The notes under the pieces were generated by a model. It had not been told where the DNA came from. It searched no databases and saw only the letters and a list, made by a program, of their open reading frames with translations. 64,000 bases of DNA from the NCBI GenBank assembly GCA_026388115.1, contig JAPLKK010000033.1, positions 2,470 through 66,469 on the forward strand. The letters are read 5' to 3'. Source of the stretch: Elusimicrobiota bacterium. Lineage in GTDB: Bacteria; Elusimicrobiota; Elusimicrobia; UBA1565; JACRDR01. Positions 3,827 through 62,698 of the stretch are shown one piece after another. The position numbers and the translations under genes are program-made. Every line of letters starts with the position of its first letter. Position 1 is the stretch's first letter.

Positions 3827-3865
3827 CCCTCTCCCGCGAAGCGGGAGAGGGCAGGGGTGAGGGCA
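3827..3865 (+). repeat. Short palindromic repeat element, type A (CCCTCTCCCG-N5-CGGGAGAGGG-CAGGGGTGAGGGCA)
   Basis: Read directly. It forms a perfect 9-bp stem hairpin plus a conserved tail. It lies between the purNH stop and the next start, and supplies a GAGGG Shine-Dalgarno 7 nt before ATG 3870. Confidence 0.8.
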
Positions 3866-4433: not shown

Positions 4434-4472
4434 CCCTCTCCCGCCGTTCGGGAGAGGGCAGGGGTGAGGGCA
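4434..4472 (+). repeat. Short palindromic repeat element, type A
   Basis: Near-identical copy of 3827-3865 (CCCTCTCCCGCCGTTCGGGAGAGGGCAGGGGTGAGGGCA), in an intergenic position. Confidence 0.8.
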
Positions 4473-22718: not shown

Positions 22719-22848
22719 CGCCGAGAAATATAGCTTACCATTAAGCTACAATAGAAACCTCAGCCCGGTCGACCGCCCCCGAGATTCGGCGGCCGTCGAC
22801 CGCGCGACCTAACCTACAGCCACTACAGCGACGATCACATAATAACCC

Positions 22849-24390: not shown

Positions 24391-24464
24391 CCCTCTCCCG
24401 CCTAGGGCGGGAGCCTCCGCCGTTCCCCCTCTCCCGCGTTCGGGAGAGGGCAGGGGTGAGGGCA
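24391..24464 (+). repeat. Tandem pair of palindromic repeats (partial hairpin plus full type A copy)
   Basis: CCCTCTCCCGCCTAGGGCGGGAG is followed by CCCTCTCCCGCGTTCGGGAGAGGGCAGGGGTGAGGGCA. It lies between two convergent genes and is likely terminator-like. Confidence 0.8.
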
Positions 24465-27785: not shown

Positions 27786-27822
27786 GCCGCCGGCTGACAT
27801 CAGCCGGCGGTTTTGTTTTGGC
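27786..27822. terminator. Bidirectional rho-independent terminator
   Basis: GCCGCCGGCTGACATCAGCCGGCGG hairpin followed by TTTTGTTTTGG, directly after tRNA-Ser and at the 3' end of the convergent WD40 gene. Confidence 0.6.
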
Positions 27823-29056
27823 GAAGGACTTTGACCGCCAGAACGAGGGCAACGATCACTAGAGCAGCAAGGGCGGCGACGACGAATTTGCCCTCACCCC
27901 CACCCTCTCCCGAAACGCGGGAGAGGGAGACCGGAGGCTTGCCCTCACCCCCCACCCCAGCCCTCCCCCACAAGGGGGGAGGGAGAACGACCCTGAGGGA
28001 GAGTTTAGCGGGTGGACGACCGCTGGCGCGCTGAGTCTTGCGCGCGGCAGGCGGCGCCGCGGCGGGCGGGGCCACAGCCGAGATCTTCATCGGGCCGACG
28101 GAGTCGCGCCCCCCCGCCGCGAGCGCGTCGCCCTCGGGAGAGAACACGAGGCGCTCGATGACCACCGGCCGCCCCGCCTGCGTCCAGCCGTCCGCCTTGC
28201 CCGCCCGCCGGCCCGTGCGGGCATCCGTGAAAAGCACGGCACCTTCCGCGTCGGAGTGGGCCAAGAGGCGGCCGTCGGGAGAGAAGGCGACCGCGTTCGC
28301 CGCGGCGACCGCTCCCGCGTCGCTCTTCCACTCCTCCTTGCGCGCCGAGAAATCCCACAATGCCAACTCCATGCGGGAGCCGCCGTCGCGAAGAAAGACC
28401 AGCTGGGTCCCGGCGGGCGAAAAGACGAGCGCGTGCATCCGCCCTCCCGAGGGAGCTTGGGCCGCGAGCGCGCCGGTGACCGCGTCCCAAACACGCAGGG
28501 ATCCGTCGCGGCAAGCCGCGACTACGATGAGGCCGTCAGGCGAGAAGGCGAAGGCTTCGGTCGCGGCGCACGAGCTTTCCAGCCTGGCGGCGGCCAGCCG
28601 GCGCATGTCGAAGAGCGAGAGCCCTCGGTCCTCCGAGTCCCACAGAAGACGATACCCTTCCGGCGACAAGAGCGCGCGCACCTCGCCTCGGTGCAGACCG
28701 ACATCGAGCGCGCGCTGAGTCCCGGTCGCCATGTCCCAATAGCGCAGGCCGCCCACGCCAGGCAACGGCGAGAGGATGGCGGCCTTGGGATCGGCGGCCA
28801 AGGCGACGAGAAACAGGCTCGCCGGCGCGGCGATCGCCTGCTTCTGCCGGCCCCCGTCCAGGTCCCACAGGCGCACTTCGGAGCCGCTTTCGCCGCCGGC
28901 GGCCGAGACCAGGGAACGGCCGTCCGGAGAGAAAGCGAGGCCCGAGAGCTTACCGCCGCGGCCGGACAGGGTGAGCCGCTCTTTGACAGCCACTTCGGCG
29001 GCCTGAGCCGACGCGGCGAATGCCGCCGTGAGAAACAACAGCGCGCGAAGCCTCAT
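27800..29056 (-). CDS. Secreted WD40/beta-propeller repeat protein with repeat-element-derived C-terminal extension and hydrophobic tail
   Basis: Start at MRLRALLFLTAAFAASAQA, followed by multiple LxFSPDG...WD-type blades. The last ~90 codons read through two palindromic repeat copies (27889-27983), then a TM-like FVVAALAALVIVALVLAVKVL plus RQNK. Confidence 0.65.
   Translation of the reverse strand: MRLRALLFLTAAFAASAQAAEVAVKERLTLSGRGGKLSGLAFSPDGRSLVSAAGGESGSEVRLWDLDGGRQKQAIAAPASLFLVALAADPKAAILSPLPGVGGLRYWDMATGTQRALDVGLHRGEVRALLSPEGYRLLWDSEDRGLSLFDMRRLAAARLESSCAATEAFAFSPDGLIVVAACRDGSLRVWDAVTGALAAQAPSGGRMHALVFSPAGTQLVFLRDGGSRMELALWDFSARKEEWKSDAGAVAAANAVAFSPDGRLLAHSDAEGAVLFTDARTGRRAGKADGWTQAGRPVVIERLVFSPEGDALAAGGRDSVGPMKISAVAPPAAAPPAARKTQRASGRPPAKLSLRVVLPPPLWGRAGVGGEGKPPVSLSRVSGEGGGEGKFVVAALAALVIVALVLAVKVLRQNKTAG
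27889..27927 (-). repeat. Palindromic repeat, type A, inverted orientation, inside WD40 gene 3' region
   Basis: TGCCCTCACCCCCACCCTCTCCCGAAACGCGGGAGAGGG is the reverse complement of the type A consensus. Confidence 0.8.
27941..27983 (+). repeat. Palindromic repeat, type B (CCCTCACCCC...CCCTCCCCCACAAGGGGGGAGGG)
   Basis: Variant hairpin CCCTCCCCC-ACAA-GGGGGGAGGG, preceded by the CCTCACCCC box. Confidence 0.75.
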
Positions 29057-29082: not shown

Positions 29083-29116
29083 CCCCCACCCCTCCCCTCC
29101 CCCACAAGGGGGAGGG
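29083..29116 (+). repeat. Palindromic repeat, type B
   Basis: CCCCCCACCCCTCCCCTCCCCCACAAGGGGGAGGG in the divergent intergenic region between the WD40 gene and the DUF47 gene. Confidence 0.75.
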
Positions 29117-30690: not shown

Positions 30691-30724
30691 CCCCCACCCC
30701 GACCCTCCCCCACAAGGGGGGGGG
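30691..30724 (+). repeat. Palindromic repeat, type B
   Basis: CCCCCACCCCGACCCTCCCCCACAAGGGGGGGGG, immediately after the pitA stop and at the 5' truncation point of the next gene. Confidence 0.75.
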
Positions 30725-41837: not shown

Positions 41838-44800
41838 CGCGGCGCCGCGGGCGGGCCGGGCGACGACGTCATCGTCATCCCCGAGCGGACGAAGGCCGTC
41901 GGCACCCCGTCGCCGTTGAGCGCGCGGACCTGGTAGGAGTAGGCGACGAGAGGCGAAAGCCCCGTGTCCAGGTACGTCGTCGAGCGCACATTGGCCACGA
42001 ACAGGAAGACGCCGCCGGTCGAGCGGTCCACCTCATAGAGCGTGCCCGCTGGGTTCGAATTGGCCGACCATCTCAAGCTCGCCGTCGTCGACGCCGCCGA
42101 CACGACCAAGCCCGCCGGCGCCACGGCCAAGGTGTAAGCCGATACGGGAGGCAAGGAGACGGACGCGCCCCCGTGGTTGAAAACCTGCACGGTCATCGGG
42201 CCGTACTGCGTATTCGTGGACAAGCCCGTCTGCAGCCATACGACGGTGAACGGCGGCAGATCGCCGGAAAGGTTCACGCCCGCGCTGAGGACCCGGTAGC
42301 CGGTCTCGTTCATCGAGTTGCCGGTCCAAGTCCAGCGGATGGCGTTTCGGGCGACCGCCGCGCCCGAGACGTTGGTCGGCGCGGGCGGAGCGTCCGCCGA
42401 GGGAGTGACGACGGCCGCCGCCGGGGTGTAGGCGCTGAGCACGCCGTCCGCGTTGACGGCGGCCAGGCGGTAGTAGAAGGTCGTCGCGGGACTTAAGTAT
42501 CCATCGGTCGCCGCGGTGTCCAGCGTCGTGATCCAAGGCGAGAAATTCGCGGTCGCCCCCGTCGTCGACCTCTCAAGCCGGTAAGGCGTGCCGGATGGAT
42601 TGCCCGCGGCCGACCAGGAGAACGTCGCCGAGGTCGAAGAGATGCGGACTGCGGCGAAGCCGGCCGGCGAGGCGGCAAGGGTAGCGCGCGAGGCCAGGCC
42701 AGAATCGGCCGTGCCCCCCGAATTGAAAGCCTCGACGAGGCAAGGGCCGTAGATTCGGTTGGGCGACAGGCCCGTCTGAGTCCAACTGTTCAGGCTCGGC
42801 GGGAGGTCCCCGGAGATATTCGCCGTTCCTGCCAGGACGCGATAGCCGGCGGCGACAGCCGAGTTGACCGTCCATCTCCATTGCACCGCGCTCGTGCCCA
42901 AGGCGACCCCCGCAAAACCGGTCGCCGCCGCCGGCGCGCTGGCATCCGCCGTGCGCGCGGACGTCACCGTTTGCTGAGAGGTGTCCGAGGACGGGCTGAT
43001 CGCGACTATCGAGAAGAGGTACGTCGTCGCGGGCAGCAGTCCGCCGAACGTCACCGTGGCCGTCGCGGTCGTCTGGCTCAGGAACGGGGAGCCTGCGGTG
43101 GACGCGGAGACTGTGTATCGCGTGCCTTGAGGGTTGCCGTTGGTGGACCAAGATAGCGTCACGGACGTGGTGCTCACCGCGAGGGGATAGAACATCGTGG
43201 GAGGGGCGGCCAGCGTGCACGCGGAGGCGGCCGAGCTTGAAGTGCTGACGCCGCTCCCGTTGAAGGCCTGCAGCAGGTAGGGGCCGTAGCACGTGGCCGT
43301 GGACAGCCCATCTTGCATCCACGAGGTGGCGTCCGGGAACAGGTTCCCCGAAAGATTCGTGGCGCCGGCCATCACGCGATAGCCGAGGGCGTTGGTCGCG
43401 CCGCTCGACCAACTCCACGCGATGCGGGTGGTGGCTACGCCCTTGCCGGCGAACCCCTTGGGCGCGACCGGAGGGCCTTGTGCCGCGGTGAGCGTGGAGG
43501 CCATGACGCCGAAATCCGTGAATAGGCCTTCGGCGTTCTTGGCCCGCACCTGATACCAGTACATCGTCGAAGGGTTCAGCCCCGTGTCCAAGAACGTCGC
43601 CGCCGTCGTCAGCGCGATGGAGACGAACGTCCCGCTCGTCGAGCGCTGCAGATCGAAAAGCGTCGTCACCGGATTCCCATTGGCCGACCAGCTCAAGCCG
43701 ACGGCGGACGAGGACGCCGCGACCGCGGCCAAGCCGGAAGGCGCGGCCGCGAGGGTGTAGCGGGAGGCGGGGGCGGAAGTGGCGTTGGTCGCCCCGTTGA
43801 AGGCCGTCACCCAATACGGACCGTAGAGAGTGTTGGGCGTGAGGCCCGTCTGAAGGAAGGTGGTGGTGTTGCCCGCGAGGTCGCCGGACACGTTGGCGTT
43901 CCCGGAGATGACGCGATAGCGCGTCCCGAGGACGGACTTGTCGTTCCAGGACCAGAATATGCTGCGCGTGGAGACGGGCGTGCCCGCGAAGATCGACGGC
44001 GGAGCGATGAGCGGCGGCAGCGCGACCGGGCCCGCCAGCGCGCTGTCGATGGAGTCCCGATTCCTGCCCGCGACCTTGAAATAGTAAGTGGACAACGGAG
44101 CGAGGCTCGTGTCGGTGAAACTCGTCGCCCCCGTCGTCAAGAGGGAGCGCCAAGCGTAGCTCACGCCGTCGGTGGATCGAAAGATGTCCCAAGTCGTGCC
44201 CGCGGGGTTGCCGTTCGCCGACCAGCTCAACGTCGCGCTGCTCGGCCCGACCGGAGATATCGCCAGACTCGTTGGCGGCGCCGCCGATGTGGCCCCCGGA
44301 AATTGGTAAGAATCCGCCGTACCAGTCGAATTGAAAGTGCGGAGGAAGCGGTAGTAGGTGGTGTTCGTCGATAGGCCCACCTCCAGCCAACTCGTGGCGC
44401 TTGCCGGAAGATCCCCGGAAAGGTTGACCGTGCCGGACATGACGCGATAGCCCACGACGAGAGATGCGGGGGCGGGCCAGAACCAGAGCATCGAGCCGGT
44501 CCCCATGGCCCGACCGGAAAGCCACGACGCGATGGGCGGCCCGGCTGCCTGGATCGCGAACGGTCCGGCTGTCCGCACATTCCCGGCGCGGTCCCATGCC
44601 GTGAAGATCGCTTGATTGGTCGCCCCGCAAGGCGAGATTCCATTGCAGACCATGGAAGCGGCCGAGTTGGATAGGTTCAGCAGGGCCCCGGTCAGCGTTT
44701 GCGCCGCCGTCGTCCCGTCGGCACCGGACAAGGCGGATGCCAAAGGAGCGGCCCTTGCGATCCCACCATTAGTCCACGACCCGATGTACAGTTTCCCGTT

Positions 44801-47800
44801 GAAGGCCGCGAGGCTTACCAGACTACGCGGCGACCAAGGCCAGTTTACCACCAGCCAATTCACGCCGTCGGGCGTGGTGAATAGCGGCCCGTTTGAATTG
44901 GCCGCGTACAGTTTTCCGTTGAACGCGGACAGCGCCGTGATCGTCCCCTCTACGGTGGATCCCGCCGTCCAATTGAGCCCGTCGGCGGATGAGGCGATCT
45001 GGCCGTGGTAGTCGGTCCCGGCGTACAATCGTGCGCCGAATATCGCGAGGCTGTAGACATTCCCGTTCACCGCCGGGTGCGTCCAGCTCACGCCGTCAGC
45101 CGAAGCGTAAATCCCCCCGGAGCCTCCAGCATAAAGCTGTCCGTTGAATGAGATCAACGAGAGGATCGGAGGGCCGGGCGCAGGGTTTTGGTACCAGTTG
45201 ATGCCGTCGGGAGAACTGTACAGCGCCGAAGGTACCGCGCCCGTGCTCGCCGCGTAGAGCCTGCCGTTGAATGAAGCCAGAGCGGTGATGGAGGCGACGC
45301 CGTCCCCCGCCACCGCGTAGTTCCGCGTCCAGGCGCCACCTCCGCCCGTGCTGTATACGGCGGCGCCTGCGACGGTACCCGCATAGAGCCTTCCGTTGAA
45401 AGCCGCAAAACTCCTGACCGAGCGGCCGCTCGTGACGAATTCCGTCGACCAGGCGAGCCCATCCGAGGATGAGTAGACGGCGCCGCTATTCGCGGAGCCC
45501 GCGAATATCTTTCCGTTGTAGGAAGCCAGGCTCTGCACCCCGGAATTCCAATAGGGCCAGTCCATGTTGGCGAAGTCCTGCCACGCGCTTCCAGCCGACG
45601 ACGAGCACATCACCCCGAAGCCCTGCACGAAGCCCGGGGTGTCGTGCCCGTCTCCAACGAGCGCGAGCGCGTTCGCCGAGACCGCCAGGCCGCTGACCGC
45701 GTCCTGGACGCCGATCTGCACCGTCACGGTCGAGCGCAGGTCGTTCACCTGCGATTCGCTCACGGCCGCGCCGCTCGAATTGAGGCTCGCGAAAGCCCCG
45801 GCCTGGGCGGGAGGCGTGAAGTCGGTCACGAAGCTGAACGTCGGCGACCACGGCCCGACGCTGTCGCCGCTCAGCGCCACCCGCCAGTAGTACGTGGCGG
45901 CCTCAGTGAGAGTGAAAGTAGAGAGATAGGCCGCGTCCGCCGTCGGCAGGCCGGTACTCGCCACGACTGCCGGCGTCGAGATGCCGATGACGATGCTTGC
46001 CGGCGAAAAGCCGGGGTCGTTGTTCGACACTTGAAGGAGATAGGACGCGCCGGAGGACATGCCGGCCACGACCGCCGTGCTGGCGCCGATCCAATCGAAG
46101 TTGGGCTGGAGGTTCACGTAGGCGCCGTTGGCCGGGTAGGTCGGCAGGAGGCTCACCGGCGTGAGCGCGAGGGATACGGGGCCCGCGAAATCGGTCGCGA
46201 TCCCCTCGCCATTCTTGGCCCGGACCCAGTACGTGTAGGTGATGCCGGGCAGCAGAGCGTCGGTGAACGTAGGCGCCGCGCTCGATTGGAAGACGGCGGC
46301 CAGGGTCGTGCCGGTCGAGCGTTCAAGGTCCCATATGGTATTGGGCGGATTCCCGTTGGGCGACCAGGAGAGCGTCGCGCCGCCGGCGCCGAGGGGCGAG
46401 ATCGAGAACTGGGCGGGCGCCGCCGCCAAGGTGAAGCCCGAATTGGAAGACGAGTCCGCTGTGCCGGATGAATTGAAGGCGCGCGCGAAATAGGGACCGT
46501 AGCGGGTGTTGATCGACAGTCCCGTCTGCAGCCAGCTCGTCGTCCCCGCCGGAAGGTCGCCGGAGATGCTCGTCGATCCGGACATGACCCGTAGACCGGC
46601 CGCGTTCGGCACGCTGTTGACCCAGCTCCAGCGGATCGCATCCGGGCCGGCGGCGGCATGCGCGAACAAGCCCGGGGCCGTCGGCGCCGCGAGGTTCCAG
46701 CCCGAGACGTTGACGGGAACCGGACCGGCGAAGGCGGTGAAATAGCCGTCGCCGTTCTTGGCCCGGACCTTGTAGTAATAGGTCGCCGAGAGCGTCAGGC
46801 CGCCGTCGGCGACACTCGCCGCGACGCTGGATTGAAAGACCGGCGCGTATAGCACGCCGTCGGTCGAGCGTTCCAAGTCCCAGAACGTCCCGCTCGGATT
46901 CCCGTTCGCGTCCCAGCTCACGGTCGCACTGCTCGGGCCCACGGCGGTCGCCGCGAGATTCGCGGGGACCGCCGCCAAAGTGAAGGCCGAAGCGGACCAC
47001 GAGTCGGCGGCGCCGGTGGAATTGAAGATGCGCACGAAGTACGGTCCGTACCTCGTGTTCGTCGCGAGGCCGAGCTCCAACCACACCGTCGTGCCCGGCG
47101 GCAGGTCGCCCGAGATGTTCGTCGTCCCGGACATGACGCGAAATCCGGAGATCATCGTAGCGGTGCTGACCCACGACCATTGGATCGCATCCACGCCCAC
47201 GGCGCTGTGCATGTAGTTTGCCGCAGCCGGCGGCGGCGAGGACACCACGATCGCGTAAGGTCCGGCCGCGAGCACGTTCCCCGCGAGATCGGAGACGGTG
47301 AAGATCACTTGGTTGGTGGCCGCGCAAGGCGAGGCTCCGCCGCAGGTCACCGTATTGGATGAATTGTTAAGCGCGAGACCGAAGACGCTCAGCGTCTGCG
47401 CCGCCGTCGTGCCGTCCGCGCCGCCGAGGTTGGGGAAGAGCGGATTCTTTAGGATGATCCTGCCGTCATTGGTCCCGGCGTAGAAATTGCCGGAAAACCC
47501 CGCCAAGCTCGCGATCCCGCCTGCCGCGGCGGTGCTGAAGACGAGCATCCACCGCGCTCCATCAGGCGAGGCATAGATCGCGCCGTCGGGTCCCGCGCCG
47601 GCATAGAGCTTGCCGTTGAAGACGGCGAGGCTCCGGATCGCGGTCTCTCCGGTGCCGGTCAGGACCGCGGCCCAATCGGAGCCGTTGGCCGAAGCGTAAA
47701 CCGCGCCCGCCGGCTCGGTCCCCGCGTAGAACTTGCCGTTGAAGGCGGCCAGGGTCCGGATAGCCGTCGCCCCCGGCAACGATGCCTGGCTCCAGTTCAC

Positions 47801-50800
47801 GCCGTCGACGGAGGCGAACAGGATGCCGGCGCCTCCCGCGAAGAGCCTGCCGTTGAACGCGCCGAGCGTCCCGATGGAAGGACCCGGAGCGGGCACCCGG
47901 CTCCAACCGGCGCCGTCGGACGACGCATACAGCATCGACGCGGCGCTGTTCGAGGCGTATATCCTCCCGCCGAACACCGTCAGGCTCGCGATGCCCTGAG
48001 GCCCCGCCTGCGCCGGCGCGGTGTAAGCCGCCGACCAGGTGGTCCCGTTGAACGATGAGAATATCTTCCCGGCCCCATAGGTGCCGAAGAAGAGCTTCCC
48101 ATTGAATACGGCGAAGCTTTGGATCTGCGTCTCGCCGGCGCCGCCCGGGAACGTGCTGCTGAAGACAAGATTCCAGGTGACGCCGTTCGCCGAGGCATAC
48201 AATCCCGCGTTGTTCGCGGTCGCGGCGTACAATCTCCCGTTGAAGGAGGCAAGAGCCGGCACCGATACGGCCGCGGTGCTGGAAAAGGTGGGCGTCATGT
48301 AGTAGGAATCGACCCAACTCTTGCCTGCGTCGGTCGAATAGAGGACGCCGCAGCCCCCGCTCGAACCCGGGCCGTCATGCCCGTCCCCCGCGAATGCAAG
48401 GCGGCCTTGGGTGACCGCAAGACCGGTGCCGGCGTCTTGGACGCCGAGCCGGGCCGCTCCCCCGAACCCCGGATTGATCTGCGCCTCGCCGACCAGCGTG
48501 GAGGTCCCGCTGAGACTGGCGAAGGCCGCGGACTGAACGGGCGGCGTGAAGTCCGCGTAGAACTTGGACGCCTGCGACCATGCCCCGAATGCGCCGTTGT
48601 TCGCGGCGACGCGCCAATAGTAGGTGGTGTTGTCGGTGAGGGTGAAGGTGGAGAGGTACGCCGCGTCCGCCGTCCGCACGCTCGTGCTCGTCAAGACGGC
48701 CGGAGTGGATATGCTGATCACGATATTGGACGGCGTGAAAGCCGGGTCGTTGTTGGAGACCTGGAGATAGTACGCCGACCCCGCGGGCAGAGCGGCGGCC
48801 GAGGTGGTGCTGAGCCCGATCCAATCGAAGTTGGGCTGGATGTTGACATACGATCCATCGACTGGAAACGTCGGGACGGCGGTGGAGAGCGCCGGAAGGG
48901 TGATGACCGTGGCCGTGGCCGCGAACGCGGTGAAGAAGCCGTCGCCGTTCTTGGCGCGCACTTGGTAGAAATAGGTCGATGCGGGCAGCAGGCCGTAGTC
49001 CGTATAGCTCGCCGCCGCGCTCGACTGGAAGATGCTGTTGACGTTGATGCCGTCGCTCGAACGCTCAAGGTCCCATACGGTGCCCGCCGGGTCGCCGTTC
49101 GCCGACCAGCTCAACGTCGCGCTGCTCGCTCCGGCGACGCTGCCGGCGAAGCCGGCGGGCACCGCCGCCAGCGTATAGCCGGAAACGGAAGCCGAATCCG
49201 CCGTCCCGCTCGAGGTGAAGACTCGGACGACATAGGGACCGTAGCGCGTGTTCGTCGAAAGGCCGGTCTGCAGCCAGCCGGTCGCGTCGGGCGGCAGGTC
49301 TCCCGACACGTTCGCGCTCGCGGCCATCACGCGATAGCCGGACGGGTTCGGCGAGGCGCCGGTCCAAGACCATTGGATCGAATCGACGCCCGTCGCGCGA
49401 CGGGCAAAGCTCAGGGGCGCGCTCGGCATCGATGAAATGAGGACGGCGAACGGACCGGCCGTGAGCACGTTGCCCCCCAGGTCCGAGGCCGTGAAGAGCA
49501 CCTGGTTGGTCGCGCCGCACGGCGAGACCCCGCCGCAAACGACCGAATTCGACGAGTTCACCAAGCTGAGGTTGAAGGCGCTGAGCGTCTGCGCTCCGGT
49601 CGCACCGTTCGTTCCCGTGAGCCCGGCCTGGACCGGCGTGAACTGGTATATCTTTCCGCCGTCGGTCCCGGCATACAGCTTTCCGTTCAATGCCGCCAAG
49701 CCCTCGACTCCGCCTGCCGCGGCGCTGCTGAATACGGGCATCCATGTCGCCCCGTCCGGCGAGGCATAGATCCCCCCCATGTATGTCCCGGCATACAGCT
49801 TCCCATTGAAGACAGCAAGGCTCCGGATGGAAGCTCCGCCGGTGCCGGTCAGCGCCGGAGTCCAATCGACGCCGTTCGCGGAGCCGTAGACCGCACCGCT
49901 GGGCTCCGTTCCGGCGAACAACCTGCCGTTGTACGAGGCGAGACTCCGGATCGCGGTCGTTCCCGGTATCGAGGTCTGCCCCCAGTTGACGCCGTCGGCC
50001 GAGACGAAAAGCACGCCGTTGGCGCCCGCATAGAGCCTGCCGTTGAACACCCCGAGCGTGTTGACCGACGGACCCGGAGAGCCCACCGGGCTCCAGCTCG
50101 CCCCGTCACCCGAGACATAGATCACCGAGGTCACGCTGTTCACCGCGAACAGCTTCCCGTTGAACACGACCATGCTCTCGATGCCCTGCGCCCCGGCCTG
50201 GACCGGCGAAGTGAAGACAGCCGTCCAAGTGCTTCCGTCGGGCGAGGAGAAGATCTTTCCCTTTCCGTAGGTGCCGAAGTACAGCTTTCCATTGAAGGGG
50301 GCGAAGGATTGGATCTGGGTCTCGCCGGCTCCGCCCGGGAACGTGCTGCTGAAGACCTGGGTCCAGCTGCCGCCGCTCGCCGAGACGTACAATCCCGCGT
50401 TGTTCGTGGTGCCGGCATAGGCCTTGTTGTTGAAGGCCGCAAGGGCCAACACGTGAGTCGTGCTGCTGCCGGCAAAGACGATGTTGGGGCTCGGCGAATC
50501 GATCCAAGTCCGGCCGGCATTGGTGGAATACAGGACGCCGAAGGGGCTGCTCCAGCTGGAATAGTCGTGCCCGTCCATGGTGGGCGGGCTCGGAAAGACC
50601 GCGAGGCCGGTGCCGGCGTCTTGAACGCCGATCTGCGCGGTCACGTTGGCCGCCAAGCTCTGGAGCTGAGCTTCGCCCGCCGGCGGATAGGTCGAGACGC
50701 GGGTGCCGAAACCCGCGGCCTGAGCCGGCGCGGTAAAATCGGTCTGGAATCTCGCGGGAAAGAAACCCATGCCGGTCTGGATCAACCACGGTCCGAGCAC

Positions 50801-52429
50801 CTCGGACTGCGCGTCGGCCACCGCGACGCGCCAATAGTAGGTCGTATTGTCGGTGAGCGTGAACGTCGAGCCGTACGCTCCGTCCGCCGTCGGAAGGCCG
50901 GCGGCGACGACGACGGGCGTCGCTATGCTGATCACGATGCTCGATGGCGCAAAGGCCGGGTCGTTGTTCGAGACTTGGAGGAGATACAGCGCGCCGCCCG
51001 GCAGGCCGGCGGCCGAGACCGTGCTGAGGCCGATCCAATTGAAATTCGGCTGGACGTTCAAATACGCGTAGTTGGGCGGGTAGCTCGGCGCGATCGCCGA
51101 CAGGTCCGGGGGGAGCACGCCGCTCAGGGTCAGGCGGAGCGCGCGGTACGCGTTGGCCAGCCCCGCGCCGGCCGCCGCCGAGGCGCCGATGGCGTATGCC
51201 GAGCTTCTCAGATTGGTCTGCACCTGCGCCGGCGTCAGCGTCGGCATGGCCGAGAGCATGAGGGCCGCGATGCCCGCGACCAGCGAGGAGGCGTACGACG
51301 TGCCGGCCACGGAAACGTAGCCGCCGTTGAGGCCGGTGGTGAGGATCCCGTTGACGGCGTCGCCGCCCGGAGCGACGAGGCCGTTGGCGGCGAGCTCGGG
51401 GCCGCGGGACGAATAGGCGGCCACGGCGTTGGATATGTCCGTGGCGCCCACGGGGATCACATTCGCGCAATTGGCGGGGTTGTTGACCGCGTTCCCATCG
51501 TTTCCCGCGGAGGCAACGACGGTCATTCCCGCTGCGGAGGCGGCGTTGAGCGCGTTCTGCAGCGGCGCGCCGCACGGGCCCGCCGCGCCGAGGCTGAGGT
51601 TCGCGACGACGCGACCCGTCAAAGTCTCGGCGTAGCCAAGCGCGGCGATGACGGAAGCGTCCGAAGCGACGCAAGCGCTTCCCCCGCAGGAGGAGTCGCA
51701 GGAGCCGTCGCTCGGGAATACTTTCAGCGAGACGACCTTCGCCCCCCACGAAATGCCCGCGACACCGATCCCGTTGTTGGTCGAGGCGGCGGCGACGCCC
51801 GCGACCGCCGTGCCGTGGTAACAGGCCGGAACCGGCGGGTTCTCACCGACGCAGACGCCGCTCGAGCAGTCCTGGCTATGCGACGCGTCGATCTTAGCGG
51901 CAAGGTCGGGATGGTCGGCCTGTATGCCGGAGTCGATGATCGCGATCGAGACCGGATTGGTGTTCCCCGTCTCGTAGCTCCAGGCGGCGAGCGCGGCCAC
52001 GTTGTTCAAGTACCACTGGCCGCCCAGTTGAGGGTCGTTCGGGCTCAGCAGCGCCCGGTGGGCGCGGTTGGGATGGGCGTCGAGCACGCCGGGCAAGGCC
52101 TTCAATATCTCCAGCCCATTGGCGACGGGCATGCCCTCGGGCATGAAGACGAGGTGAGCGGCGCTTCGCCCGAGCCGCCGCTGCACCAACATCCCTGCGT
52201 TCCTCAACGCTTGCGCCCGTACCTTCGCGTCCACGCCCTCATCGAAGAGAACGAGTGCCTCCCCGGCGAGCACTTCCGCATTGCGAAAGGACGGCATGCG
52301 CTCGACGCGGCGCCTATGCGCCGCCTCGGCCGAAGCGGGAACGAGAGAGACGGCCGCCAGCGACAGGAGGGCGCCGACCAGGCGACAGGCGGCGGAACGG
52401 GCTGTTCGGCGGCCACAAAATCCAAGCAT
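41834..52429 (-). CDS. N-terminal portion of giant secreted protein: signal peptide, I9-like propeptide, S8 subtilisin domain, multiple BNR/Asp-box beta-propellers, Fn3 arrays
   Basis: S8 triad in IIDSGIQ (Asp), CYHGTAVAG (His), AGTSYASS (Ser) at ~51229-52039. It has dozens of S-x-D-G-x-x-W Asp-box motifs with FNGKLYAGT blades, and repeated Fn3 modules (LAAVP...SATLSWSANGNP...WDLERS). The 3531 codons run without a stop. Confidence 0.85.
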   Translation of the reverse strand: MLGFCGRRTARSAACRLVGALLSLAAVSLVPASAEAAHRRRVERMPSFRNAEVLAGEALVLFDEGVDAKVRAQALRNAGMLVQRRLGRSAAHLVFMPEGMPVANGLEILKALPGVLDAHPNRAHRALLSPNDPQLGGQWYLNNVAALAAWSYETGNTNPVSIAIIDSGIQADHPDLAAKIDASHSQDCSSGVCVGENPPVPACYHGTAVAGVAAASTNNGIGVAGISWGAKVVSLKVFPSDGSCDSSCGGSACVASDASVIAALGYAETLTGRVVANLSLGAAGPCGAPLQNALNAASAAGMTVVASAGNDGNAVNNPANCANVIPVGATDISNAVAAYSSRGPELAANGLVAPGGDAVNGILTTGLNGGYVSVAGTSYASSLVAGIAALMLSAMPTLTPAQVQTNLRSSAYAIGASAAAGAGLANAYRALRLTLSGVLPPDLSAIAPSYPPNYAYLNVQPNFNWIGLSTVSAAGLPGGALYLLQVSNNDPAFAPSSIVISIATPVVVAAGLPTADGAYGSTFTLTDNTTYYWRVAVADAQSEVLGPWLIQTGMGFFPARFQTDFTAPAQAAGFGTRVSTYPPAGEAQLQSLAANVTAQIGVQDAGTGLAVFPSPPTMDGHDYSSWSSPFGVLYSTNAGRTWIDSPSPNIVFAGSSTTHVLALAAFNNKAYAGTTNNAGLYVSASGGSWTQVFSSTFPGGAGETQIQSFAPFNGKLYFGTYGKGKIFSSPDGSTWTAVFTSPVQAGAQGIESMVVFNGKLFAVNSVTSVIYVSGDGASWSPVGSPGPSVNTLGVFNGRLYAGANGVLFVSADGVNWGQTSIPGTTAIRSLASYNGRLFAGTEPSGAVYGSANGVDWTPALTGTGGASIRSLAVFNGKLYAGTYMGGIYASPDGATWMPVFSSAAAGGVEGLAALNGKLYAGTDGGKIYQFTPVQAGLTGTNGATGAQTLSAFNLSLVNSSNSVVCGGVSPCGATNQVLFTASDLGGNVLTAGPFAVLISSMPSAPLSFARRATGVDSIQWSWTGASPNPSGYRVMAASANVSGDLPPDATGWLQTGLSTNTRYGPYVVRVFTSSGTADSASVSGYTLAAVPAGFAGSVAGASSATLSWSANGDPAGTVWDLERSSDGINVNSIFQSSAAASYTDYGLLPASTYFYQVRAKNGDGFFTAFAATATVITLPALSTAVPTFPVDGSYVNIQPNFDWIGLSTTSAAALPAGSAYYLQVSNNDPAFTPSNIVISISTPAVLTSTSVRTADAAYLSTFTLTDNTTYYWRVAANNGAFGAWSQASKFYADFTPPVQSAAFASLSGTSTLVGEAQINPGFGGAARLGVQDAGTGLAVTQGRLAFAGDGHDGPGSSGGCGVLYSTDAGKSWVDSYYMTPTFSSTAAVSVPALASFNGRLYAATANNAGLYASANGVTWNLVFSSTFPGGAGETQIQSFAVFNGKLFFGTYGAGKIFSSFNGTTWSAAYTAPAQAGPQGIASLTVFGGRIYASNSAASMLYASSDGAGWSRVPAPGPSIGTLGAFNGRLFAGGAGILFASVDGVNWSQASLPGATAIRTLAAFNGKFYAGTEPAGAVYASANGSDWAAVLTGTGETAIRSLAVFNGKLYAGAGPDGAIYASPDGARWMLVFSTAAAGGIASLAGFSGNFYAGTNDGRIILKNPLFPNLGGADGTTAAQTLSVFGLALNNSSNTVTCGGASPCAATNQVIFTVSDLAGNVLAAGPYAIVVSSPPPAAANYMHSAVGVDAIQWSWVSTATMISGFRVMSGTTNISGDLPPGTTVWLELGLATNTRYGPYFVRIFNSTGAADSWSASAFTLAAVPANLAATAVGPSSATVSWDANGNPSGTFWDLERSTDGVLYAPVFQSSVAASVADGGLTLSATYYYKVRAKNGDGYFTAFAGPVPVNVSGWNLAAPTAPGLFAHAAAGPDAIRWSWVNSVPNAAGLRVMSGSTSISGDLPAGTTSWLQTGLSINTRYGPYFARAFNSSGTADSSSNSGFTLAAAPAQFSISPLGAGGATLSWSPNGNPPNTIWDLERSTGTTLAAVFQSSAAPTFTDALLPGITYTYWVRAKNGEGIATDFAGPVSLALTPVSLLPTYPANGAYVNLQPNFDWIGASTAVVAGMSSGASYLLQVSNNDPGFSPASIVIGISTPAVVASTGLPTADAAYLSTFTLTEAATYYWRVALSGDSVGPWSPTFSFVTDFTPPAQAGAFASLNSSGAAVSESQVNDLRSTVTVQIGVQDAVSGLAVSANALALVGDGHDTPGFVQGFGVMCSSSAGSAWQDFANMDWPYWNSGVQSLASYNGKIFAGSANSGAVYSSSDGLAWSTEFVTSGRSVRSFAAFNGRLYAGTVAGAAVYSTGGGGAWTRNYAVAGDGVASITALASFNGRLYAASTGAVPSALYSSPDGINWYQNPAPGPPILSLISFNGQLYAGGSGGIYASADGVSWTHPAVNGNVYSLAIFGARLYAGTDYHGQIASSADGLNWTAGSTVEGTITALSAFNGKLYAANSNGPLFTTPDGVNWLVVNWPWSPRSLVSLAAFNGKLYIGSWTNGGIARAAPLASALSGADGTTAAQTLTGALLNLSNSAASMVCNGISPCGATNQAIFTAWDRAGNVRTAGPFAIQAAGPPIASWLSGRAMGTGSMLWFWPAPASLVVGYRVMSGTVNLSGDLPASATSWLEVGLSTNTTYYRFLRTFNSTGTADSYQFPGATSAAPPTSLAISPVGPSSATLSWSANGNPAGTTWDIFRSTDGVSYAWRSLLTTGATSFTDTSLAPLSTYYFKVAGRNRDSIDSALAGPVALPPLIAPPSIFAGTPVSTRSIFWSWNDKSVLGTRYRVISGNANVSGDLAGNTTTFLQTGLTPNTLYGPYWVTAFNGATNATSAPASRYTLAAAPSGLAAVAASSSAVGLSWSANGNPVTTLFDLQRSTSGTFVSIALTTAATFLDTGLNPSTMYWYQVRAKNAEGLFTDFGVMASTLTAAQGPPVAPKGFAGKGVATTRIAWSWSSGATNALGYRVMAGATNLSGNLFPDATSWMQDGLSTATCYGPYLLQAFNGSGVSTSSSAASACTLAAPPTMFYPLAVSTTSVTLSWSTNGNPQGTRYTVSASTAGSPFLSQTTATATVTFGGLLPATTYLFSIVAISPSSDTSQQTVTSARTADASAPAAATGFAGVALGTSAVQWRWTVNSAVAAGYRVLAGTANISGDLPPSLNSWTQTGLSPNRIYGPCLVEAFNSGGTADSGLASRATLAASPAGFAAVRISSTSATFSWSAAGNPSGTPYRLERSTTGATANFSPWITTLDTAATDGYLSPATTFYYRLAAVNADGVLSAYTPAAAVVTPSADAPPAPTNVSGAAVARNAIRWTWTGNSMNETGYRVLSAGVNLSGDLPPFTVVWLQTGLSTNTQYGPMTVQVFNHGGASVSLPPVSAYTLAVAPAGLVVSAASTTASLRWSANSNPAGTLYEVDRSTGGVFLFVANVRSTTYLDTGLSPLVAYSYQVRALNGDGVPTAFVRSGMTMTSSPGPPAAPR

Positions 52430-52642
52430 TTGATCCCGGCTATTCGGCTGGCTCCGCGAGTGAGGTACTGGATTTCAAAAAACTACGACCTGCCGGCCGA
52501 TTTAGCGTTTTATCTGAATTTAGGCGCAACTCTTAGGTTAGCCCCGGGGCGCCACCGAATCCCGAAGAAATTCCGACTTTCCTTAATACACTAAGCAGGC
52601 AAGGCTTCGGCCGTTGCGTTGCAAAAAGGTATAAAGACCCGC

Positions 52643-54617: not shown

Positions 54618-55560
54618 TTATGAACCCTCACCCCGACCCTCTCCCGCCGTTGGCGGGAGAGGGAGAGCGTGGTATACGGCGAGGGCTTCCTGCACGGTTC
54701 GGGCATGGAGGGCCACGGTGTCCTCGAGCTTGGGGGCATAGCCCCCGCCCAGCGTCAAGACGACCGGGATGCGCCGGTCCTCGCAGGCGGCGAACACGAA
54801 CTGGTCGCGCGCGGCGATGCCGTTGGCGGTCAGCTTCAGGCTCGCCAAGAGGTCGCGCTCGTGCACGTCCACGCCGGCCTGATAGACGACGAGGCCCGGC
54901 TCGTGACCGTCCAGAGCGGTAGGCAGGCGCGAGCGCAAGAGCTCCAGATACTCGATGTCGCGCGTCCCGGTGGGCAGCTCGATGTCCATCGTGCTCTTCT
55001 GGCGAGGCTGGGGATAGCCGTCCTTCTGATGCATCGAGAAGGTGAACACGTCCGGCTCGCCGGCGAAGATCGACGCCGTGCCGTTGCCCTGGTGCGCGTC
55101 GAGGTCGACGACGAGGGCGCGCCGCACGACCTTCTCGCGCCGCAAGGTCTCGATGGCGAATGCGATGTCGTTGAACATGCAGAAGCCCTCGCCATGGTCG
55201 CGGAAAGCGTGATGCGCGCCGCCGCCGATGTGCAGGCCCAGGCCGCCCTCGAGCGCCAGCCGCGCGGCCGCGAGGGTCCCCCCCGCCGCGAGCGCGTGCG
55301 CCTCCATCCCCGGGCGCGACCATGGCAGCTCCATCATGGTCTCCTCGTCCAAGGTGAGCGCGCCGGTGCCCGCGCGGCGGACCCAATCGGCGGCGTGCAC
55401 GAGCCCCAGCGCCTCGGGAGACGGCATCTCAGGCTCGACGCGCCGGTCCGCATCGAGCGCGCCCTCCGCCATGAGCTTCTCGGCGGTGCGCTGGAACTTC
55501 AGGGTGGGAAACGTGTGCGCGCCGATATCGACGGTATAACGCGCCGAAAAGACCCAGTGG
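54618..55560 (-). CDS. Histone deacetylase-family (AcuC/HDAC-like) protein
   Basis: Zinc/catalytic motifs HIGGGAHHAF, FCMFNDIAF, DLDAHQGNGT. The N-terminus ...LFHWVFSARYTVDIGAHTFPTLKFQR lies in frame upstream of the first ATG (55472), so the start is non-ATG and overlaps the tonB 3' end. The C-terminal PLPPTAGEGRGEGS is encoded by a repeat element. Confidence 0.7.
54625..54663 (-). repeat. Palindromic repeat, type A, inverted orientation
   Basis: CCCTCACCCCGACCCTCTCCCGCCGTTGGCGGGAGAGGG. It forms the last codons and stop of the HDAC-like gene and the spacer to the prfB start. Confidence 0.8.
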
Positions 55561-59012: not shown

Positions 59013-59867
59013 TCACGGTTTCGGAAACAAGGAGCAGGCACGCAGGTCTCTTACGAACCCCTCCTTCATCGGCGCGCCCGGCCAGGGCAGCCACCCCGGC
59101 TCGGGGGCGAACTCGACGGAGGTGCCGCCGCAGCGCGCTTCGATCCAGCCCGGACGGCCGGCGGAAAGCGTCCAGCCCTTGAGCCAGAGCTCGCCGGGCC
59201 TCATCCCGTCCACGAAAACGACGGCGGCGCGAGGATGAAGGAGCAGCACGGCCGCTCTGGCCGCGCTGAGCCGGCACGCCCGCGCGCGCCGGACAACGAG
59301 GTCATGGCAGGCGCCGCGGCCGATGAGGGCCGCCTCGCGGCGCAACGCCCGCCGCGCCCGCGCCCGCCGCGCCAAGAGCCCAAAGCGGCCGAGGATGAGC
59401 GCGAGGAAAGCGGCAACGACGCTTGCCCTCACCCTACCCTCTCCCGAACGTCGGGAGAGGGAAAGAGGCCGTTCTCCCTCTCCCACCGAAGGCGGGAGAG
59501 GGCCGGGGTGAGGGCAAATCCTCCACTGTCCGAACCGCTCTCGCACCGCTTCCAGCCGGCCCGAGCCGTCCGCGGCTTCGAAGGACACGCGCGCTCGATT
59601 CCAGTCCTCCATCGCGAGCCCCACCCGGCTCCCCGGCCGCGCCTCGGCCGGGATGCGCTCATGGCGCCAGCCCTCGCCGGGCCACGATGCCACGCGTTGG
59701 GCCAGATACGGCTCGTTTCCATACAGATAAGCGACCCGCTCCAACCCGTCCGGACCGCGCGCGGCCTCGGATATCACGATGGCCGGATCCAGCCGCCCGG
59801 GGCCGCCGACCCTGTCGAGGGGCCCGCCAGGCTGGGAAAGGAAAAGCGCCAGAGCCGCGGTGATCAT
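59013..59867 (-). CDS. Hypothetical protein carrying an in-frame inverted pair of palindromic repeats (low confidence)
   Basis: The 284-codon frame from MITAALALFLSQP has GC-rich third positions and continues through 59424-59516 (31 codons of repeat-derived PHPGPLPPSVGEGERPLSLSRRSGEGRVRAS). It has no recognisable domain and could be non-coding. Confidence 0.25.
   Translation of the reverse strand: MITAALALFLSQPGGPLDRVGGPGRLDPAIVISEAARGPDGLERVAYLYGNEPYLAQRVASWPGEGWRHERIPAEARPGSRVGLAMEDWNRARVSFEAADGSGRLEAVRERFGQWRICPHPGPLPPSVGEGERPLSLSRRSGEGRVRASVVAAFLALILGRFGLLARRARARRALRREAALIGRGACHDLVVRRARACRLSAARAAVLLLHPRAAVVFVDGMRPGELWLKGWTLSAGRPGWIEARCGGTSVEFAPEPGWLPWPGAPMKEGFVRDLRACSLFPKP
59424..59516. 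repeat. Inverted pair of type A palindromic repeats (59424-59461 inverted, 59476-59516 direct)
   Basis: TGCCCTCACCCTACCCTCTCCCGAACGTCGGGAGAGGG ... CCCTCTCCCACCGAAGGCGGGAGAGGGCCGGGGTGAGGGCA. Confidence 0.8.
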
Positions 59868-60660: not shown

Positions 60661-61188
60661 ATGCCGCCTTTGAAGGACGCGCTGCGCCGTGCGCTCGCCA
60701 AGCAGAAACCCCGCCGGGAGCCGATGGATGGATCGATCCGCGCGGCGGTGCTCGTGCCGATGCTCGGCGGCCGAGAGCCGCGGCTCCTCTTCATAGAGCG
60801 CACGGCCCACGCGCTCGACCCGCACTCCGGGCAGATCAGCTTTCCCGGCGGCCGCTGGCACGCCGGCGACACCGACGCCGTGGCGACGGCCTTGCGCGAG
60901 GCGGAAGAGGAACTGGGGCTCGGCAGGGATGCGGTCGAGGTGCTCGGCTGTCTCGCCGAGCGGCGCACGATCACGGGCTTCGCCATCACGCCGGTCATCG
61001 GCTGGATCGAGACCTGCCCGCCGCTCACGCCGCAGGCCGCCGAAGTGGCCGACTGTTTCCAGGTGAGCATCGGCGAATTGTCAGGGACCCGCGAGAACGG
61101 ACGCCTCGAGTATCATGCGGACGGCCGGGTGATCTGGGGCGCGACGGCGCGGATCACGTCGGAGCTGCTGGAGCTTTTGGCTAAATAA
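60661..61188 (+). CDS. NUDIX hydrolase, CoA pyrophosphatase-like
   Basis: Nudix box GGRWHAGDTDAVATALREAEEELGL. An upstream AAVLVPM... region is as in NudL-type CoA pyrophosphatases. Confidence 0.75.
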   Translation: MPPLKDALRRALAKQKPRREPMDGSIRAAVLVPMLGGREPRLLFIERTAHALDPHSGQISFPGGRWHAGDTDAVATALREAEEELGLGRDAVEVLGCLAERRTITGFAITPVIGWIETCPPLTPQAAEVADCFQVSIGELSGTRENGRLEYHADGRVIWGATARITSELLELLAK

Positions 61189-62698
61189 CCAGCGCGGCTA
61201 TCGCCGCGACCAACGCGAGCCAGCCGAACCAGTCGCCGGCGCGGGAATAGAGCGAGCGGCGAGGGAACGGATCGACGCTCGGGACCGAGCCGTAGAGCAC
61301 TCCCTCCCGCATCAAGTCCAGTCTCGCCGTGACGCGGCCCCAGGGATCGATGACCGCCGAGATGCCCGTGTTTCCCGCGCGGATCACATAGGCGCGGTTC
61401 TCGATCGCGCGGAAACGGTTGGCGTAGAAGTGCTGTAAGGGTCCCCAGGTGTCCTTGTACCACCCGTCGTTGGTGAGGTTCGCGAGCACGCGCGCGCCCG
61501 CCTGCACGTTCACGCGGCTCCAGCGAGGAAAGATCGCCTCATAGCACAGCGTGACGCCGACGGGGCCGATCGGGGTCTCCAGCGGAGGCTGCTTCAGCGC
61601 TCCAGGGGTGAGATCGCCCATCTGCCCCAGGATGCCGATCCAGCCCTCCAGGTATCGGCGGAAGGGGACATACTCGCCGAAGGGCACCAGCTCGCGCTTA
61701 TGATAGACGCCCGCGATGCGGCCCGACGCGTCGACCAGCACCGCCGAGTTGCGGTGAAAGCCATTCTGGTCGGTCAGCGCTCCGGCTAGCTGGGCCACGC
61801 CGCTGCGCGCGGCCCAAGACGAGACCCAGACCCGATTGTCCTCGAGCCAGCCGGGGACGGAAGTCTCCGGCCAGACGATCAGCGCGGGCTTGGCCTGGGC
61901 GGCTTGGGCAAGCAGGCGGTCGAAGCTCGAACGGATGCTCACGACCTCGCCCTCGTCCCACTTGCGATATTGGTCGACGTTCGGCTGGATGATCGCGACC
62001 AAGTACTCCCTCCCCCCTCGTGGGGGAGGGTTGGGGTGGGGGGTAGGCGCCGTTCGCAATGAGATCGTTCCGGCCAGCCACCAGGCGGCGATGAGGGCCA
62101 CCACGACCACAGCGTTCCTTAAAAGAACGACGCTTTCCCTCACCCCCGCCCTCTCCCCTTTGGGGGAGAGGGCGCAAGCCAAAACGCCGTTTGCGGCGAC
62201 GATGAGGAAGCCGAGGGCGTGGGGGCCGAACCAGGAGGCCGGCTGCAGCAGCGTCAAGAAGCGCCATTGAGTATAGCCGAGGAGGTCGCAGCCGACGCGC
62301 GGAGTCCAGCGGGCGAGCGCGAACTCCAGGGCGGCCCACAACGCCGCGCAAGCCCAAGGCCGCAGCGCCGCCGGAAGGCGGGCGAGCCGATAGACGCCGG
62401 CGGCGAACACCGCCCAAGCGGCCCCCTCGAAGGCCGCGAGCGCGGCCCAGGCCAGCAGGGACACCGGGACCGGCACGCCGGCGAAGCGGCAGGTGAGATA
62501 GATCCAGTGAAGCAACAGGGCGAAGAAGGCGGCGCCCGCGACCCAGCCGAGCGCGGCCGCGCGCCAAGCGCTCTTGGCCCCGCGCGCGGCGAGAAGCAGC
62601 GGGACCAAGCCGATCCACGCGAGCGGACAGAGGCTGGGCTTAGGGAAGCAGAGGGCGAGGAGGACTCCCGAGAGGACGGCGGCTAAGAGCCGTGGCAC
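61181..62698 (-). CDS. lnt: Apolipoprotein N-acyltransferase with two in-frame palindromic-repeat insertions
   Basis: N-terminal polytopic membrane domain and C-terminal CN-hydrolase domain (LVAIIQPNV..., WPETS, catalytic-Cys region VTLCYEAIFP). LSPKGERAGVRES and LRTAPTPHPNPPPRGGREY are encoded by repeat copies at 62138-62173 and 62008-62044. Confidence 0.85.
   Translation of the reverse strand: MPRLLAAVLSGVLLALCFPKPSLCPLAWIGLVPLLLAARGAKSAWRAAALGWVAGAAFFALLLHWIYLTCRFAGVPVPVSLLAWAALAAFEGAAWAVFAAGVYRLARLPAALRPWACAALWAALEFALARWTPRVGCDLLGYTQWRFLTLLQPASWFGPHALGFLIVAANGVLACALSPKGERAGVRESVVLLRNAVVVVALIAAWWLAGTISLRTAPTPHPNPPPRGGREYLVAIIQPNVDQYRKWDEGEVVSIRSSFDRLLAQAAQAKPALIVWPETSVPGWLEDNRVWVSSWAARSGVAQLAGALTDQNGFHRNSAVLVDASGRIAGVYHKRELVPFGEYVPFRRYLEGWIGILGQMGDLTPGALKQPPLETPIGPVGVTLCYEAIFPRWSRVNVQAGARVLANLTNDGWYKDTWGPLQHFYANRFRAIENRAYVIRAGNTGISAVIDPWGRVTARLDLMREGVLYGSVPSVDPFPRRSLYSRAGDWFGWLALVAAIAALVI
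62008..62044 (-). repeat. Palindromic repeat, type B, inverted, in frame inside lnt
   Basis: CCCTCCCCCCTCGTGGGGGAGGGTTGGGGTGGGGGG. Confidence 0.75.
62138..62173 (-). repeat. Palindromic repeat, type A variant, inverted, in frame inside lnt
   Basis: CCCTCACCCCCGCCCTCTCCCCTTTGGGGGAGAGGG. Confidence 0.75.

Follow-up and report, generated by a model that had tools for sequence, protein, structure and literature searches.

In-frame copies of the BoxC/PIT/TM_ECO repeat in two loops of Lnt from an Elusimicrobiota bacterium, and their probable link to DUF559 units

In a 64,000-nucleotide stretch of a metagenome-assembled genome (MAG) from an Elusimicrobiota bacterium (GenBank assembly GCA_026388115.1, contig JAPLKK010000033.1, positions 2,470 to 66,469 of the forward strand; hereafter the window), the gene for apolipoprotein N-acyltransferase, lnt, contains two short repeat segments that are translated as part of the protein. 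The locus raises the question of what these segments are, how they could have entered a constrained membrane enzyme, and whether they are of any use to it. Comparison of the gene with its orthologues, and of the segments with other copies of the same repeat, leads to an answer that we consider highly likely though not certain: two copies of the BoxC/PIT/TM_ECO repeat lie in-frame in loops of an apparently functional lnt, they are lineage-specific, and they represent tolerated passenger DNA that was probably mobilised by units encoding a DUF559 domain.

Two repeat copies within the lnt reading frame

The lnt gene occupies positions 61181..62698 on the minus strand (505 aa, GTG start; assigned on the basis of Pfam, PDB and AlphaFold2 results). 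Its open reading frame (ORF) contains ...ACALSPKGERAGVRESVVLLRNAVVVVALIAAWWLAGTISLRTAPTPHPNPPPRGGREYLVAIIQPNVDQ... and reads identically to the translation written in an earlier note on this DNA; an exact-protein look-up returned no record identical to the window Lnt. Pfam assigns LNT_N to aa 10-171 and CN_hydrolase to aa 234-473, E. coli Lnt structures are matched with E = 2e-34 (E. coli and P. aeruginosa Lnt structures with E about 1e-34), and in the orthologue alignment the catalytic triad E278/K334/C385 is kept together with 80 invariant columns. The LNT_N membrane domain joined to CN_hydrolase, the Glu-Lys-Cys triad and the eight-helix fold identify the protein as Lnt. An AlphaFold2 model prepared from an input of 23 sequences has a mean pLDDT of 88.9 and a pTM of 0.90, and comparison with the lnt of a close relative (L001, described below) gives a dN/dS of 0.17 overall. 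Because the ORF is continuous and holds both Pfam domains with no frameshift (as the earlier note had maintained), the triad is conserved, the TM-score of the model to E. coli Lnt 8b0l is 0.84, and dN/dS falls to 0.14 when the inserts are excluded, lnt is shown, to the extent that sequence and structural modelling can show it, to be a still functional, constrained gene. It is also tightly packed: its 3' end overlaps the 3' end of a convergent NUDIX gene (60661-61188) by 8 nt (61181-61188), its start shares 16 nt with the region of the secA stop, and this packing is kept in L001.

The Lnt fold comprises eight helices (H1-H8), its two termini lying in the cytoplasm and its nitrilase-like domain in the periplasm between H7 and H8 (Wiktor 2017, PMC5500888); linker L2 connects H7 to beta1 of the nitrilase-like domain (PMC5500888). 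Mapping onto this fold shows that one copy (site 1) lies in the cytoplasmic H6-H7 loop and the other (site 2), which is inverted, in periplasmic L2. The earlier note had put both between the last transmembrane helix and the CN-hydrolase domain, which is right for site 2, between H7 and beta1, and wrong for site 1; nor is H7 the last helix, as H8 follows the hydrolase domain in the mapping to E. coli Lnt (PMC5500888). In the HMMER alignment to E. coli Lnt, site 1 falls between P194 and L195, in the cytoplasmic H6-H7 turn, and site 2 between E219 and K220, inside L2. That these are linker positions, as had been supposed, is borne out by their variable length and poor conservation: among 120 orthologues the loop around site 1 has 5-27 residues (window 22, median 18) and that around site 2 has 13-35 (window 22, median 15). 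Against the mean of 88.9, the pLDDT of the model is 68 at aa 181-190 (site 1), where the model extends H7 N-terminally with part of the insert, and 52 at aa 221-230 (site 2), where it drops below 50 at aa 224-228 and no secondary structure is predicted.

The core of site 1 (62137..62172, minus strand: CCCTCTCCCCCAAAGGGGAGAGGGCGGGGGTGAGGG) encodes ALSPKGERAGVRE (aa 176-188) and on the coding strand reads as a hairpin, CCCTCTCCCC-CAAA-GGGGAGAGGG, followed by CG and then by GGGGTGAGGG. With its family-specific flank (AAAGCGTCGTTC), which is common to intergenic copies in the window (…GGGGTGAGGGCAAGCGCCGTT…), the element spans 62123..62173 on the minus strand (~51 nt, aa 176-192). The core of site 2 (62008..62042, plus strand: CCCTCCCCCCTCGTGGGGGAGGGTTGGGGTGGGGG) encodes TPHPNPPPRGGRE (aa 219-231) and reads CCCCCACCCC-AA-CCCTCCCCC-ACGA-GGGGGGAGGG on the lnt strand; it belongs to the CCCTCCCCC/GGGGGAGGG subtype, as do the window copies at 27949, 29083 and 30691, and with its flank (GAACGGCGCCTACC) it spans 62006..62056 on the minus strand (~51 nt, aa 215-231). 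An extra flank (…GGGGTGAGGG-CAAGCGYCGTT…) is present on several window copies including both in lnt, where each element amounts to ~51 nt or 17 codons; the tryptic peptides expected across the inserts include GERAGVR and TAPTPHPNPPPR. The two sites are mutually inverted and 94 nt apart, and the native lnt sequence between them (62043..62136, minus strand) encodes helix H7 (…NAVVVVALIAAWWLAGTISL…), which aligns with H7 of all orthologues and in which L202, G210 and L214 are conserved or nearly invariant.

The repeat family to which these segments belong was defined by Holder et al. 2015 (NAR 43:10126, PMC4666352) as TM_ECO, 5'-CCCTCNCCC N3-6 GGGNGAGGG N3 GGGNGAGGG, a motif named BoxC in work of the 1990s and PIT (potential intrastrand triplex) by Maher and colleagues in 2000, with 3,610 copies in 262 proteobacterial genomes. 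The 23 copies in E. coli K-12 are 'always located intergenically' and include five inverted pairs of type A with type B; an intrastrand triplex was shown in vitro with E. coli oligonucleotides and none was detected in vivo, the repeat has no promoter or terminator activity, and it is locally unstable, with mutated or deleted copies (PMC4666352). In an Enterobacter genome, 100 hairpin copies lie at gene 3' ends (PMC2869309). When the published pattern is applied with one mismatched triplet allowed, site 1 fits exactly and site 2 fits but for one A-to-G substitution in its third block (GGGTGGGGG). The window was also scanned with CCCTCNCCC-N3-9-GGGNGAGGG-N3-GGGNGRGGG, which specifies 27 bases, using 100 shuffles as control; there are 10 exact matches versus 0.00 expected, and a looser 20-mer consensus gives 13 matches versus 0.65 expected, one of which, at 14755, was discarded as chance (3 mismatches, no hairpin). 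Twelve copies are recognisable in the 64 kb, five of them within coding sequence. These results confirm that both lnt segments, with their pattern matches at 62137-62172 and 62008-62042, are copies of the dispersed BoxC/PIT/TM_ECO repeat; the earlier note had correctly taken them for repeat copies and had not recognised the known family.

The repeat consists of 35-50 nt, comprising a G+C hairpin of 9-10 bp and a third G-rich block. Across the 12 window copies 63 of the 72 reading frames are free of stops, which occur only in the G-GGG-TGA-GGG frame of one subtype, the other having no stop in any of the six. Translation yields peptides in which Pro, Gly, Ser, Arg and Glu abound and which are likely to be flexible. 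As RNA, site 1 is predicted to form a hairpin of -35.8 kcal/mol (z = -4.1). A reading of the hairpins as intrinsic terminators was rejected, there being no T-run and no terminator-like site called there, and an Rfam search in E-value mode over 58.5-64 kb gave only sub-threshold chance matches to microRNA hairpins and no known RNA family.

Comparison with the orthologues shows that the insertions are lineage-specific, as the earlier note had anticipated. The 96% identical Lnt of an independent ENA assembly (P0001/L001) has both elements at the same codons, while in the 70% identical Lnt with the same secA-lnt-NUDIX-DUF748 synteny (P0002/L002) the sequence at either site is shorter and unrelated. 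Among the 120 best orthologues the inserts are shared by P0001 alone, and all but one of the others are without them. Because the inserts are present in P0001 and absent in P0002, their acquisition falls between these two nodes, which shows that lnt gained the copies in an ancestor shared with the 96% relative, once the line to the 70% relative had branched off. The one other case is P0094 (L123), a 47% identical Lnt on an Elusimicrobia-like contig, where a TM element at 8562-8594, the sole copy in 16.9 kb, occupies the same H6-H7 position in the opposite orientation and another frame (…ALYPSPQPSPKGRGSF…; PSPQPSPKGRG) relative to window site 1; it is an independent insertion into the same Lnt loop.

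The repeat in other genes and its association with DUF559

Other copies in the window, all identified as pattern matches, lie both within genes and between them. A WD40-repeat gene on the minus strand (27800..29056), whose ORF matches the protein P0121 annotated at NCBI with 100% identity, carries two tandem TM elements (27891..27983 on the minus strand, at 27891-27927 and 27949-27983) in-frame in its linker, upstream of the conserved membrane anchor at the C terminus. The 78% identical orthologue (P0122/L125) has one element in the same place (4140-4178) and keeps the frame into its end at …RQNKTAG, so that the copy number within this coding linker varies, two in the window versus one in the orthologue. 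An HDAC-like gene (54618..55472, also on the minus strand) owes its last ~14 codons (…PLPPTAGEGRGEGS, then stop) to a further element (54625..54663, minus strand), just beyond which lies the stop codon at 54618-54620; the orthologue in L123 ends ~13 residues sooner. Between genes there are an inverted pair at 59429..59514, flanked by divergent genes, a copy at 3827..3863 on the plus strand, and copies at 4434-4470, 24427-24462, 29083-29116 (just upstream of the WD40 gene start) and 30691-30724. An ORF at 3870-4415 that is flanked by two elements was considered as a nuclease and rejected, as it encodes a small secreted protein.

Two further repetitive features of the window were noted. A very long ORF on the minus strand (41834-52474 and 39048-42032), about 3,500 codons stop-to-stop, contains numerous internal repeats, now diverged, whose periods are about 120, 540 and 2,190 nt, and probably encodes a giant repeat-rich surface protein. 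At 23301-23411 a tandem repeat of 21-24 nt (GCAGCCGCCGCAGCAGGCGCA…) lies in an ORF (22846-24381, plus strand) with a Gln/Pro/Ala-rich low-complexity product.

The distribution of the element was followed by scanning one genome per GTDB species with CACCCC-NN-CCCTCYCCC-N3-10-GGGRGAGGG, which yielded at least 120 loci, with 134 matches among those listed. The matches listed include Bacteroidota, Alpha-, Beta- and Gammaproteobacteria, Dehalococcoidia, Verrucomicrobiota, Planctomycetota, Myxococcota, Acidobacteriota, Omnitrophota and others, and among them the unspecified bases upstream of the motif are likewise conserved (CCCT or CCCC). Since the core motif occurs in many phyla, the element is far wider than the proteobacteria. 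About ten of the 134 matches listed lie in-frame inside long conserved genes, solo or paired; the genes concerned in other phyla are those for Mfd (L007), LigA (L054), a P-type ATPase (L089), YgiQ (L086) and an RND pump (L051), whose identities were read from the translations and not from Pfam, together with MetRS and PriA.

To our knowledge, the origin and means of spread of the BoxC/PIT/'triplex motif' repeats have stood without explanation since the 1990s. In metG (MetRS) of a Variovorax MAG (L005) and in priA (L115), an in-frame DUF559 domain lies between two inverted elements; Pfam recognises the domain (as a Vsr-like PD-(D/E)XK nuclease) with E = 3e-30 and E = 4e-37, respectively, and a third TM-DUF559-TM unit is in-frame in hrpA (L174). 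The reading frame of metG, priA and hrpA runs through the nuclease domain, which resembles an intein-like insertion without obvious splicing motifs. In E. coli, the DUF559 protein YcjD ends in …NRRSPSP, inside a TM-type hairpin (L127, 1700-2261), and TM_ECO no. 9 lies ~170 bp downstream of the ycjD stop, adjoining a fragment of the 3' end of a second DUF559 gene. YcjD-like DUF559 genes flanked by inverted TM elements are also found in L003, L019, L037 and L042, and over 828 kb of TM-selected loci every DUF559 ORF or fragment (6/6) abuts an element. The association was then read in reverse from 80 metagenome DUF559 loci (L128-L207; 62 clusters at 80% identity): a TM-type hairpin lies within 200 nt in 74 of the loci and 58 of the clusters and on both sides in 41 and 35, respectively, and near the DUF559 gene there are 2.55 hairpins per kb versus 0.08 elsewhere in the same loci, a 32-fold difference.

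The architecture around the DUF559 ORF is constant, with hairpin – spacer – GGGTGAGGG on one side, separated by 20-70 nt from the ORF, and CCCTCACCC – spacer – hairpin on the other, so that the hairpin is always outside and the tail inside. Because of this constancy, the element is the terminal inverted repeat of a DUF559 unit of ~0.5 kb. The inverted A+B doublets of E. coli, which have the same tails-inward geometry, look like ORF-less derivatives of it. Within the collection of papers searched, a literature search on DUF559, YcjD with repeats and Vsr-like nucleases with inverted repeats found no paper linking DUF559/YcjD to BoxC/PIT/TM. Consistent with flanking repeats, one paper lists DUF559 genes as over-represented among candidates for 'programmed inversion' that are flanked by inverted repeats (PMC9881135).

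In the lnt copies (62006-62173), too, the tails point inward as in a DUF559 unit or a miniature inverted-repeat transposable element (MITE), and the copies enclose the native H7-coding sequence. A single composite element enclosing H7 was rejected, because the 94-nt interval encodes native conserved H7; the geometry itself has a 1-in-4 chance expectation. Each lnt copy is a single terminus and not a unit bounded by terminal inverted repeats. We know of no transposition activity for DUF559. By analogy with RAYT transposases and REP sequences, DUF559 units could generate or mobilise solo repeats, and judging from their association with the element, which they bear as terminal inverted repeats, such units probably generated or mobilised the copies in lnt. 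A broader proposal, to which we give slightly less than even weight, is that BoxC/PIT/TM repeats in general are the terminal inverted repeats, and the MITE-like or solo derivatives, of pan-bacterial DUF559 mobile units, and that repeats and units repeatedly colonise protein linkers in-frame (lnt, metG, priA, hrpA, mfd, ligA, P-type ATPase), after the manner of the Rickettsia palindromic elements (RPEs) but across phyla.

Evolution of the inserts and alternative explanations

The most economical reading is that the inserts are tolerated selfish or neutral passenger DNA, filtered for frame and for loop position. The element is nearly free of stops in all six frames, the short peptides that it encodes are likely to be flexible, and under strong purifying selection on lnt only in-frame copies in indel-tolerant loops would survive.

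Several points weigh against this account as a whole. The essentiality of lnt in Elusimicrobia is our assumption, carried over from proteobacteria. Relative to L002 the net gain is +24 nt (~8 codons) per site, below the ~17-codon length of the element, which implies either that the ancestral loops were shorter or that native loop residues were lost or replaced. No empty site was found in a close relative, and because the nearest insert-free lnt is only 70% identical, the insertion boundaries and any target-site duplication are unreadable. No DUF559 gene is present in the 64-kb window, in L001, in L002 or in L123-L126. Finally, at E. coli adk-hemH (L208/L209) ~46% of 5,426 complete genomes carry an unrelated ~50-bp block that replaces the 155-bp TM_ECO no. 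6 block, which is a two-allele polymorphism and not simple presence or absence of the element; being a block replacement, it offers no clean insertion footprint, empty site or target duplication to be read.

The best-surviving alternative, although an unlikely one, is exaptation, in which the peptides, or mRNA hairpins bracketing the H7 segment, would be under selection, for example through the pacing of translation at H7 insertion or an altered L2 brace. Both sites are indeed kept in two lineages, the same Lnt loop has been hit independently in P0094, and the two inverted lnt elements are predicted to pair as RNA around the H7 codons (-107.9 kcal/mol, z = -4.1). However, over the 34 insert codons compared with L001 dN/dS is 0.43 (dN 0.086), three times that of the rest of lnt (0.14, dN 0.014), and at site 2 of L001 (about 2370-2420) a 9-nt in-frame insertion destroys the C-rich arm of the hairpin; the inserts are moreover missing from all but one other orthologue, and permissiveness of the loop explains the recurrence equally well. 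The 9-nt insertion of L001 is itself GGGGGTGAT-like, resembles the tail block of site 1 and replaces part of the C-rich arm; it may have arisen when the two inverted copies exchanged sequence by template switching or gene conversion. In the inserts the reading frame alone is conserved, and neither peptide nor hairpin. Of the earlier suggestion that the gene tolerates the insertions or has been selected to keep them, the first half is upheld and the second is not supported, given the faster evolution of the inserts and the loss of the site 2 hairpin in L001.

Much less probable than exaptation is the view that lnt is a pseudogene or decaying paralogue, whose insertions would have passed unfiltered by selection. 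Repeats usually disrupt genes, and the assumed essentiality of lnt leaves some room for such decay; but the 505-codon ORF is uninterrupted, the triad and the 80 invariant columns are kept, dN/dS against the close relative is 0.14, the L001 indel is a multiple of three, and synteny with secA and NUDIX is conserved. An assembly artefact is, if anything, slightly more improbable still: the sequence does come from a MAG, in which short dispersed repeats may lead assemblers to make chimeric joins, but L001, assembled independently from another sample, has both elements at the same codons with substitutions of its own, and lnt is colinear with its orthologues on both flanks and between the copies. 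Chance resemblance of native low-complexity linkers, which are rich in Pro and Gly in this G+C-rich genome, is effectively refuted, as both segments fit the 27-base three-block pattern (0 matches in 100 shuffles) and carry the family-specific flanks of the intergenic copies, and orthologue sequence there is unrelated. Tolerated passenger DNA thus remains the preferred explanation of the lnt inserts.

Significance and relation to known systems

The repeat family and in-frame palindromic insertion are both known; the in-frame behaviour is undescribed for BoxC/TM. The lnt case means that a membrane enzyme under constraint can accommodate BoxC/TM elements in-frame and that these can hit the same loop twice independently; with other housekeeping genes affected likewise across phyla, it extends the 'selfish DNA in proteins' of Rickettsia to a pan-bacterial element. 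For annotation, GERxGVR, GEGxGEG, PSPxPSP and PHPxPLP are signatures of the element inside proteins. The H6-H7 loop and L2 are naturally permissive insertion sites of Lnt and may serve for tagging or engineering of this antibiotic target, and the DUF559 association, if it holds, supplies a directly testable candidate for the enzyme behind the repeats.

Among known systems, E. coli Lnt (5n6h, 8b0l and other structures) has the same fold as the window protein, with eight helices, a periplasmic nitrilase-like domain and the E-K-C triad; identity is 27-28%, and in the window Lnt the H6-H7 loop is ~11 residues longer and L2 ~9 residues longer, the extra residues being repeat-derived. The window copies likewise share with E. 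coli BoxC/PIT/TM_ECO the same three-block sequence, with blocks identical to those of copies such as CCCTCTCCCTGTGGGAGAGGGCCGGGGTGAGGGC, as well as the dispersed multicopy distribution, the two subtypes, occasional inverted pairs and local decay (here site 2 of L001). They differ in that 5 of the 12 lie in coding sequence, two of these in lnt, whereas all 23 K-12 copies are reported as intergenic, and in density, with ~0.19 copies per kb here as compared with 0.005 for K-12 and ~0.03 for the richest genome in the TM_ECO survey. The host is an Elusimicrobiota bacterium, whereas the published survey reported TM_ECO from proteobacterial genomes, and the family match consists in the sequence pattern and a predicted Watson-Crick hairpin.

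For the DUF559 units the closest parallel is that of REP/REPIN sequences and RAYT (IS200/IS605-like) transposases, reportedly the subject of Nunvar 2010 and of Bertels and Rainey 2011. As there, a short hairpin repeat occurs in hundreds of copies, inverted copies flank one small nuclease-type gene, and ORF-less doublets exist; unlike REP/RAYT, the flanked gene is DUF559 (Vsr-like PD-(D/E)XK) and not a Y1 HUH transposase, and the hairpin is unrelated and has no GTAG head. For the inserts in proteins the parallel is with the RPEs, said to have been described by Ogata et al. in 2000. The RPEs are palindromic repeats found in-frame in unrelated housekeeping genes (MITE review, PMC10969869). The lnt copies resemble them in that the ORF is conserved, the frame kept, the flanking domains intact and the loop positions compatible with the fold; common to both elements are in-frame residence in housekeeping genes, short peptides at fold-compatible positions and absence from orthologues, nearly half of the RPEs being in ORFs. 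RPEs are ~100-150 bp long, belong to AT-rich genomes and are confined to Rickettsia, whereas the present element has 35-50 nt, is very G+C-rich and occurs across phyla; the comparison is one of analogy, in which length and composition differ grossly and sequence homology has no part.

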